From: Pseudogymnoascus verrucosus | Taxonomy: Eukaryota | Length of the DNA stretch: 64,000 nucleotides | Strand: one strand, 5' to 3' | Assembly (NCBI GenBank): GCA_001662655.1 | Contig: KV460214.1 | In this document: positions 21,662 to 23,854 of the stretch, one piece after another | Position numbering within the stretch: the first letter of the stretch is position 1 | Layout of the letters: each line of letters begins with the position of its first letter | Notes under the pieces: generated by a model | Database searches by the model: none | What the model was told of the DNA's origin: nothing | The model's input: the letters and a program-made list of their open reading frames with translations, nothing else | Made by a program: the position numbers and the translations under genes

Positions 21662-23784
21662 TTACTCAATCCGTGCGTAGTGTTCCAACAATTCGACAAT
21701 CTTCATCTCGCCAAGATGCTTCGCTAGTTCCTTTGGCGTCCAAAATACGCCTGTATTGAAAGTCGGGCGAGCACCATGGGTAAGTAGCTGCTCCACTGCA
21801 TGACTGTTTCTCTTCTCCACTGCACGCAATAGGGGTGTCTAATTATGTTACTTAAGGACTGACCTGCATTCAAATAGGTAACTCACTCGCTGTAGACAGC
21901 CAATAAATCAGCCTATGAATTAAAACACGCCGACATTAGATTTCATTGTTCTGGTTCACTTACTAGCTATCAAGCCACAAAGGACTGCATCAGCCTTCTC
22001 TATACGGGCTAGTGTAGTTGAAGGCCGCGTCGGGTTAACTTACTAGCTATAATACCAAAATGACTAGCATTAGCCATCTATTACACAGAGAGTTGCCTAA
22101 ATCAGGTCAGGTTCACTTACTCTCTATAATACCAAAGAGACGAGAATCAGCTATCTATTCAAAAGAGAGAAACTCAGATCAGGTCACGTTCACTTACTTC
22201 CTATAACACCAAATAAACCATCATCAGTCATCCATTTTATAAAGAGGAACACGGATTAGGACAGGTTCACTTACTTGCTACAATACCAAAGACAATCGCA
22301 TCAGCCACCCATTTAATAGAGAGTAACGCAGATCAGGTCAAGTTGGCTTACTTCCTATAATACCAACATCAGCTATCCATTCGATAGAGAGGAACTTAGA
22401 TCAGGTCAAGTTCACTAACTGGCTATAATATCAAAGAAATGAGTATTAGCCATCTATTCGATAGAGAGAAACTAAGATTAGGTCACATTAACTTACTTGC
22501 TATAATACCAAAGAGACAAGCATCAGCCACTGATTCAACAGAGCGTAGCCCAAACCAGGGCAGGTTAACTTACCACCTATAATACCAAAGTAGCAAGCAT
22601 CAGCTATCCATTTAAAGACAGAGTCAGATTAGGTCAGATTCACTTACTCCCTATAATACCAAAGAGACAAGCATTAGCCATCTGTCCGATAGAGAGAAAC
22701 TTAGGTTAGGTTAGGTTCACATACTGCCTATAATACCAAAGAGACAGCATTAGCAGTCTATTCCACAGGGAGAAGTCAGATTAGTTTAGGTTCACTTACA
22801 GACTATAATACCAACGAGACAAGCCTTAGCAACCTACTCGAAAGAAAGGAACTTCGATCAAATTCAGTTCACTTACTACCTATAATACCAAGGAAAAGAG
22901 TATCAGCTATCCATTCGATAGAAAGGAACTCATATCAAGTTAGGTTCACTTACTGCCTATAATACCAAAGAGACAAGCATCAGCTATCTACTCAATAGAG
23001 AGTAGCTCAAATCAGGTCAGGTTCACTTACCAGCTATAATACCAAAGAGACAAAGGTCAGTCATCTATTCAACAAAGAGAAACTCGGATTAGGTCATTCA
23101 CTGACTGCCTATAATACCGAAAACGCAAGCATTAGCCATCCATTTAACATAGTAGCTCAAATCAGGTCAGGTTCACTTACTGCCTATAATACCAACGAGA
23201 CTCGCATTAGCCATCCATTTGACAAAGAGGAAGTCAGGTCAAGTTAGGTTTACTTACGTACTATAATACCAAAGAGAAGAACATTAGCCATCTATTAGAT
23301 CTCAGATTAGGTTAGGTTCACTCACTGCCTATAATATCAAAGAGACAAGCATTAGCCCTTTATTTAATAGCGAGGATTAGGCTAGGTTCACTTACTACCT
23401 ATAATACCAATGACGCTAGCATTAGCCATCTATTCAATAGAAATGAACTTAGATAAGATTAGGTTCACTTACTACCTATAATACCACACAGAGACTTGCA
23501 TCAGCTATTCATTCAATAGAGAGGGACTTTGATCGGGTCAGATTTACTTACTGCCTATAATACCACAAAGAGACTTGCATCAGCTATCTATTCGATAGAG
23601 AGTAGCTCAAATCAGGTCAGGTTCACTTACCACCTATAATACCAGAGAGACGAGCATTAGCCATCCGTCTGACAGAGAGAAACTCAGATTAGGTCAGGTT
23701 CACTTACTGCCTATAATACCAAAGAGACAGCATTAGGTATCTATTCGACAGAGTACCTCAAACCGGGTCGAATCCACTTACTCC
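21662..23784 (-). CDS. 5'-truncated ankyrin-repeat gene built from 26 single-codon (3-nt) exons plus a 177-nt terminal exon
   Basis: Micro-exons give GAVAVVAYAALAVSAGVQPEQERLLR; terminal exon 21838-21662 gives TPLLRAVEKRNSHAVEQLLTHGARPTFNTGVFWTPKELAKHLGEMKIVELLEHYARIE*, which resembles the ankyrin consensus. No start codon found, so it may now be a pseudogene. Confidence 0.7.
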
Positions 23785-23854
23785 CTATAATATTAAAGAG
23801 ACGAGCATTAGCGATTCATTCGATAGAGAGCTCAAATGGGGTTAGGTTCACTTA
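21839..23854 (-). repeat. Tandem array of homologous introns (unit 68-80 nt, mode 77 = 74-nt intron + 3-nt exon)
   Basis: Minus-strand unit consensus GTAAGTGAACC...GATGGCTAATGCTTGTCTCTTTGGTATTATAG|NNN|, repeated about 26 times. Confidence 0.93.

Follow-up and report, generated by a model that had tools for sequence, protein, structure and literature searches.

Predicted codon-sized mini-exons in a tandem array that ends in an ankyrin exon, probably within a headless gene copy

Runs of single-codon exons have been described for the nank genes of Tuber melanosporum. According to the papers that cite Iotti et al. 2012 (Fungal Biol 116:261), these NACHT-ANK genes of the NOD-like receptor (NLR) type contain “dozens of 3 bp mini-exons” that are alternatively spliced (PMC4986451, PMC3689799, PMC9815663, PMC13449251, PMC10197012). 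As worded in the citing papers, the family is expanded in T. melanosporum and carries “tens of codon-sized microexons” (PMC3689799) or “3-bp long microexons” (PMC10197012), and one review terms the mini-exons a “lineage-specific” strategy. No runs of 3-nt exons outside Tuber were found in the searchable literature. Here we analysed 64 kb of fungal DNA (64,000 nt of contig KV460214.1; hereafter, the window), the minus strand of which carries an array of 26 predicted 3-nt exons that are separated by tandem homologous introns and followed by a terminal ankyrin (ANK) exon. We put the probability at roughly 0.55 that the array is a run of codon-sized mini-exons of the nank kind, ending in the ANK exon, in a headless copy of its gene. 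The preliminary description of the locus had held such a run to be undescribed; this novelty does not stand, given the similar runs attributed to the Tuber genes in the papers citing Iotti et al. 2012. Mini-exon arrays being already known from Tuber, the locus would probably add a headless member, likely from outside that genus.

The array resembles the nank genes, as the citing papers portray them, in its many consecutive exons of exactly 3 nt with canonical acceptors and donors (AG-NNN-GT at 26/26 here), in its C-terminal ankyrin sensor (here in frame, with only ~1.5 repeats) and in that all exons are in frame, so that alternative splicing can diversify the peptide. In contrast to those genes, the copy has no NACHT domain and is truncated at its 5′ end, its splicing is predicted from the sequence, and it probably belongs to another lineage. 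Single 3-nt exons of animals (MAP4K5, Drosophila homothorax, RPS24) show, in the accounts available, that the spliceosome can include 3 nt; unlike the array, these exons are described as isolated and without homologous flanking introns. The introner-like elements reported from Dothideomycetes and the tandem-duplication models of intron gain (PMC4457414, PMC8469720) likewise involve families of near-identical introns in one fungal genome and duplication as the source; as reported, introner-like elements are dispersed among genes, whereas the copies here lie head to tail with one codon between them. The SNORD115/116 clusters of SNHG14 also consist of tandem intron-exon units within one transcript, but, as they are described, the introns host snoRNAs and the exons are non-coding. 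In the array, Rfam gave 0 matches at E≤1 (positions 21000-25000), and the RNAalifold consensus of the units reached −0.66 kcal/mol with five weak pairs, that is, no conserved structure. A snoRNA host gene was rejected on the Rfam result and the absence of a conserved fold.

The micro-exon genes (MEGs) of schistosomes encode secreted proteins and have short symmetric exons of 6-81 nt, with no known long run of 3-nt exons and with long introns that are not in tandem. They share with the array the runs of very short exons, the skipping of which keeps the frame and diversifies the protein. They differ in that the exons here are 3 nt only, the introns are a tandem repeat, and the organism is a fungus and not an animal.

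Tandem Repeats Finder reported a repeat at 22029-23830 with a period of 77, 23.8 copies and 72% matches, in line with the period of about 77 nt noticed earlier. A regex search of the minus strand confirmed AG-NNN-GT at all 26 exon positions listed in the preliminary description. The sequence cut at these positions yields 25 homologous introns of 65-77 nt between the mini-exons, all GT...AG, with exactly 3 nt separating neighbours; the previously given unit length of 68-80 nt and the constant exon length therefore hold, with a shorter intron at the end of the run, and the computed order of the codons is identical to the spliced sequence that had been proposed. All mini-exons are in phase 0, and the ANK exon of 58 codons is in the same frame. 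Within a unit, a GTAAGT donor is followed by a GCTRAT branch site ~25 nt from the TATTATAG acceptor. As in spliceosomal U2-type introns, for which CTRAY would be expected at 10-30 nt from the acceptor and the length should be typical of the genome, GT...AG, G+5 and CTRAY were found in 23/23 aligned units and also in units 24 and 25. Bona fide introns nearby are 48-58 nt long; their donors read GTAAGA or GTACGC and their branch sites TACTAAC or AGTAAC. The earlier claim that each unit is a complete intron agrees with the anatomy and divergence of the units, which fit fungal introns, with the exception of unit 0, the donor of which reads CTAAGT. The array had also been called free of open reading frames (ORFs); this is correct for the minus strand, where no long ORF was found, and not for the plus strand, which has ORFs of up to 60-85 aa. 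A coding repeat was rejected, the period not being a multiple of 3 and no long ORF crossing the array.

The junction pattern GGTATTATAG-NNN-GTAAGTGAAC (23 nt) had 24 matches at ≤3 mismatches, all on the minus strand within the array; no second copy was found outside it in the window, and 100 dinucleotide-preserving shuffles gave 0 matches. The stricter pattern YAG-NNN-GTRNGT occurred at 23/26 junctions versus five times in the rest of the 64 kb, and spacers of 1, 2 or 4-12 nt between YAG and GTRNGT occurred 0 times in the array. A scan of a metagenome collection for the junction pattern returned 1 locus with a single chance-like match and no array. By itself, the fixed spacing is weak evidence, the chance that ~10 indel events all miss 3 of 79 columns being ~0.5 (hand arithmetic); the 26 stop-free codons are similarly weak alone (chance ~0.3-0.5, hand arithmetic).

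Introns 1-23, each with the following codon, were aligned, and a FastTree tree of the units served to count changes by Fitch parsimony, with 14 signal columns (GTRNGT, CTRAY, YAG) fixed beforehand. Mean pairwise identity was 75.5%, and 68% over the 47 columns outside the conserved blocks. Identity was independent of the distance along the array, and units 3 and 11 (95%) were the sole near-identical pair; the amplification is therefore not recent. Positions G1, T2 and G5 of the donor, C48, T49 and A51 of the branch site and the terminal A75 and G76 were unchanged in 23/23 units, and the R of CTRAY alternated between A and G (12:11). In the donor, A3 had changed three times, A4 once and T6 once. 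This hierarchy (G1, T2, G5 > A4, T6 > A3) is the one to be expected for splice signals.

Over the 74 intron columns, 222 events were counted when all changes were included, of which the 14 signal columns carried 11 (P ~1e-5, column resampling) and the 8 core columns 0; for fewest events, the signal columns ranked 1 among 77 circular shifts. The 3 spacer columns carried 25 events (P=0.007), with no sign of amino-acid constraint. This combination of frozen splice positions and fast spacers fits real introns with single-codon exons that may be free or diversifying. The support for the mini-exon reading is strong but indirect, and we infer splicing of the units, past or present, and translation of their codons.

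Several points weigh against our interpretation. The units share ancestry, so the column tests are not fully independent and their P values are approximate. TpG-to-TpA transitions account for many of the differences between units, and the indices of the array resemble those of repeat-induced point mutation (RIP; TA/AT 1.21, (CA+TG)/(AC+GT) 1.02, GC 39%), with flanks that are not RIP-like. Signals rich in A and T would escape RIP anyway, which weakens the test on all substitutions. The 11-nt block TGGTATTATAG, with 5 of 253 cells non-consensus, is conserved far beyond the usual need of a fungal 3′ splice site, and another constraint is conceivable. Membership in a NACHT-ANK gene would follow from the ANK exon and the surrounding island alone, no NACHT having been found. 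Finally, all core positions are intact in the complete units, and the copy may be alive, transcribed from a cryptic start.

Because of the many TpG-to-TpA transitions and the RIP-like indices, the test was repeated on transversions only (purine/pyrimidine coding), changes for which RIP cannot account; this left 67 events (0.91 per column). The signal columns carried 4 (P=0.007) and the core columns 0 (P=0.002), and the spacer carried 15, distributed 7/6/2 by codon position (P=0.0007). The test on transversions still holds where that on all substitutions is weakened.

These results bear on the idea that the array is an intron-derived minisatellite, not spliced unit by unit, in which one intron with 3 nt was amplified by replication slippage or unequal crossing-over and the conserved blocks reflect mutational bias or factor binding. 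The RIP-like indices and the 181 transitions versus 98 transversions among non-consensus cells are in its favour, as are the conservation of the acceptor block beyond the need of splicing, the lack of a gene front and the short contigs of unstated kind (sets X3 and X7, see below) that carry the array unspliced. Against it, transversions alone are still depleted at splice positions chosen a priori and in excess in the spacer, and the donor hierarchy and the free R of CTRAY mirror splice-site rules. The middle parts of introns 24 and 25, at the 3′ edge of the array, can hardly be aligned, yet these diverged units retain GTAAGT, GCTGAT, YAG and the 3-nt spacing, and the citing papers provide a precedent in their accounts of ANK NLR genes with runs of spliced 3-nt exons. 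We consider a minisatellite unlikely.

The spacer columns are also informative about a second alternative, in which the array is an expanded compound intron: the units would be transcribed and their signals used, with the mini-exons normally all skipped (by joining of the first usable donor to the last acceptor, or by nested removal), so that nothing is added to the protein and the repeat is tolerated only for the reason that no outcome disrupts the frame. Total skipping would be harmless with all units in phase 0, and the spacer shows no amino-acid constraint. However, unused inner GT, AG and branch sites should decay, which is not seen, and the 7 and 6 transversions at spacer positions 1 and 2, against 0.91 per column, fit translated and diversifying codons better than neutrality. 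We therefore regard this explanation as improbable.

At the 3′ end of the array, the terminal exon scored E=0.0095 against Pfam Ank, below the family cut-off. With phmmer, 2383 proteins matched it at E≤0.001; identity was 30-44% among the best 150, each of them with several matched stretches. Judged from these matches, the exon is a genuine ankyrin piece. It was not significantly similar to the large ANK ORF of the window at 40737-43361 (best E=0.86). A word-index search found no related protein of at least 103 aa, a weak negative in that the source's own models are possibly absent from the collection.

At the 5′ end, the alpha/beta (AB) hydrolase piece lies antisense to the array, and its homology begins where a TTATTAG acceptor ends, ~10 nt from unit 0. 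The introns of the piece (24091-24148 and 24320-24367) are canonical and its frame is intact; residues 142-310 are 77-82% identical to Pleosporales proteins, with relatives of the PF12697/PF07819 type. Residues 1-141 had no match anywhere in the window, and the GHSLGG nucleophile of the hydrolase presumably falls among them. An array lying within an intron of an intact hydrolase gene was rejected, since the window lacks residues 1-141 and the units run antisense to that gene.

The product of the HET-domain gene beyond the hydrolase piece shares 62-75% identity with the HET domain at the N-terminus of HET-NB-ARC-TPR, HET-NACHT-WD40 and HET-NACHT-ANK receptors. In tblastn searches, 8 full-length HET-NLRs matched the window over aa 1 to ~255 only. 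The gene apparently ends at 24479-24481 after a short intron, and no in-frame donor-like site was found towards the array before the stop; a HET-to-array fusion transcript was rejected for lack of such a donor. The HET domain is followed by no nucleotide-binding or repeat domain, and the gene represents either a truncated NLR or a HET gene that stands alone. NACHT and NB-ARC domains were detected neither in the window ORFs of at least 110 aa (111 in total, 105 of them scanned at E≤1e-5) nor by tblastn with the 8 HET-NLRs. What the preliminary description called an ankyrin gene is thereby reduced to an ANK end exon of 58 codons, with an antisense hydrolase piece upstream, a self-contained HET gene and no NACHT or NB-ARC domain.

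The ANK side and the hydrolase piece both read away from the array and both lack their 5′ parts, which makes a rearrangement the simplest reading, its two breakpoints falling on an array unit's donor and within a hydrolase intron. Unit 0 is the probable breakpoint, and what remains is, most likely, the 3′ fragment of a gene that was orphaned recently. As the core positions of the complete units are all intact, the loss of the front should be recent or, alternatively, the array is still transcribed; zero changes in ~200 core sites correspond to < ~1.5% divergence since that loss (hand arithmetic).

The alternative, put forward in the preliminary description, that the gene is intact and expressed, with 5′ exons that escaped recognition and 26 codons that diversify an ankyrin/NLR protein by alternative splicing, draws on the same preservation: the core splice positions are kept in all complete units and the ANK frame is open up to its stop, where long-dead DNA would be expected to show some decay. 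Against an intact gene, the first unit lacks the donor G and, over the 600 nt upstream, a conserved coding piece of a hydrolase runs in antisense. The HET gene stops without an in-frame donor, and neither the window ORFs nor the NLR queries provided a NACHT or NB-ARC domain. The word-index result on the ANK exon points in the same direction, with the weakness given above. An intact gene thus appears improbable.

Four contig sets (X1, X2, X3 and X7) were compared with the locus; X3 and X7 are of unstated kind and stem from study P3 under another organism label. Contigs of X1, probably the source of the sequence, together span the entire stretch without a difference, and separate contigs bridge both edges of the array. 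The depth of the array contig in X1 equals that of the flanks, which suggests that the array is single copy. X2 covers 21458-22268 with 4 differences, too few for a test; the 3 listed (21952, 22037, 22238) lie outside the core signals. A 151-nt contig of X3, from the other study, crosses the junction of array and hydrolase without a difference; the junction is therefore not an artefact of this one assembly alone. The contigs of X3 and X7 (151-203 nt) are unspliced and cover 23230-23426, 23443-23645, 23841-23991 and 24233-24383 with 0-3 differences each, indicating that the same rearranged locus is present in material filed under another organism name. No joints within the array were found in the four contig sets.

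We propose that the array originated by tandem duplication of a unit of an intron and one codon, in which only spacers of a length divisible by three would keep the frame. It would have grown by unequal crossing-over, followed by divergence under selection for splice competence with the codons free or diversifying. Each intron would be recognised singly, by intron definition. An exon of 3 nt is too small for the acceptor and donor complexes simultaneously, and intron removal would therefore have to be sequential. With every exon in phase 0, any donor could join any downstream acceptor. The resulting isoforms would be in frame and carry 0-26 extra residues, differing at single-residue resolution beside the ANK sensor. 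The lost 5′ part would have contained the promoter, the N-terminal and NACHT exons and any upstream ANK repeats. The breakpoint would lie on the first unit's donor, next to which there is now an AB-hydrolase gene, also headless, in the opposite orientation.

Runs of 3-nt exons stand at the physical limit of spliceosomal definition, and the known reports of such runs in the searchable literature concern one species only. If a second, probably distant fungal lineage has the same design beside an ankyrin sensor, the mechanism would be more widespread or have arisen twice. The array also offers a signature for genome scans, YAG NNN GTRNGT at intron-length spacing, and a contrast between frozen signals and rapidly changing codons is a type of evidence able to tell mini-exons in use from junk repeats where RNA is lacking. 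The headless copy itself is probably a dead end, its value being that of a pointer to intact paralogues or orthologues. A broader and more doubtful proposition is that such arrays have long served, under selection, to diversify ankyrin-type NLR sensors throughout Pezizomycotina, with positive selection on one-residue exons and perhaps continued expression. If it were true, the frozen splice signals together with the excess at spacer positions 1 and 2, which change faster than nearly all intron sites, would be the first evolutionary signature of a mini-exon device.

Table 1. Features of the array and its immediate surroundings (positions in the window, plus-strand numbering)
Feature	Position	Strand	Remarks
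Run of 26 three-nt mini-exons (predicted)	21887..23784	-	Repeat finder, regex, alignment
Mini-exons 1-9, first bases	23782, 23708, 23631, 23552, 23473, 23396, 23326, 23258, 23181	-	
Mini-exons 10-18, first bases	23106, 23031, 22954, 22877, 22800, 22725, 22648, 22574, 22497	-	
Mini-exons 19-26, first bases	22420, 22352, 22275, 22198, 22121, 22044, 21964, 21887	-	
Unit 0, intron-like	23785..23854	-	5′ end of array; branch site and TATAG acceptor; donor CTAAGT, G1 missing
Last intron	21839..21886	-	48 nt, GTGAGT...TTAG, between CGA mini-exon and ANK exon
Terminal exon	21662..21838	-	58 codons and stop, ~1.5 ankyrin repeats, phase 0
AB-hydrolase piece	23865..24472	+	aa 142-310 of ~310; exons 23865-24090, 24149-24319, 24368-24472
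HET-domain gene	24479..25466	-	NLR-type N-terminal HET; convergent with hydrolase piece
High-copy dispersed repeat	21336..21493		~170 nt beyond ANK stop codon

The last intron shows weak resemblance to the repeat unit. The dispersed repeat downstream of the terminal exon has a summed contig depth of ~62900 in X1, against ~225 for unique flank, and is likewise abundant in X2, X3 and X7. Variant copies and loose ends are numerous, no (terminal) inverted repeat was found, and the dispersed repeat could have served as a substrate of the rearrangement.

The matches named for the hydrolase and HET neighbours belong to Pleosporales, Helotiales and other Pezizomycotina; Tuber was absent from the matches listed (0/14 for the hydrolase, 0/120 for HET). 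The number of HET-domain genes in T. melanosporum has been contrasted with the 15 of Pyronema confluens, and the same source suggests selective gene loss in Tuber (PMC3778014).

A fungal self/non-self gene island surrounds the array, with genes of the HET, HeLo, PNP_UDP-kinase, BTB and ANK types. Further tandem repeats were observed in the window at 2076-2507 (65 nt x6.6), 16628-16730 (16 nt x6.5), 51188-51535 (96 nt x3.7) and 51947-52126 (93 nt x1.9), all without the AG-NNN-GT junction pattern. At 27996-29863 on the minus strand, adjacent ORFs encode PNP_UDP_1, a phosphorylase-superfamily domain of the NLR N-terminal type, and then a full protein kinase domain, an unusual pairing. A HeLo (prion-inhibition and propagation) ORF at 31271-31660 on the plus strand adjoins a subtilase S8 gene at 32721-34718 on the minus strand, and a perfect 82-nt x1.8 tandem duplication (31233-31383) lies just upstream of the HeLo ORF.

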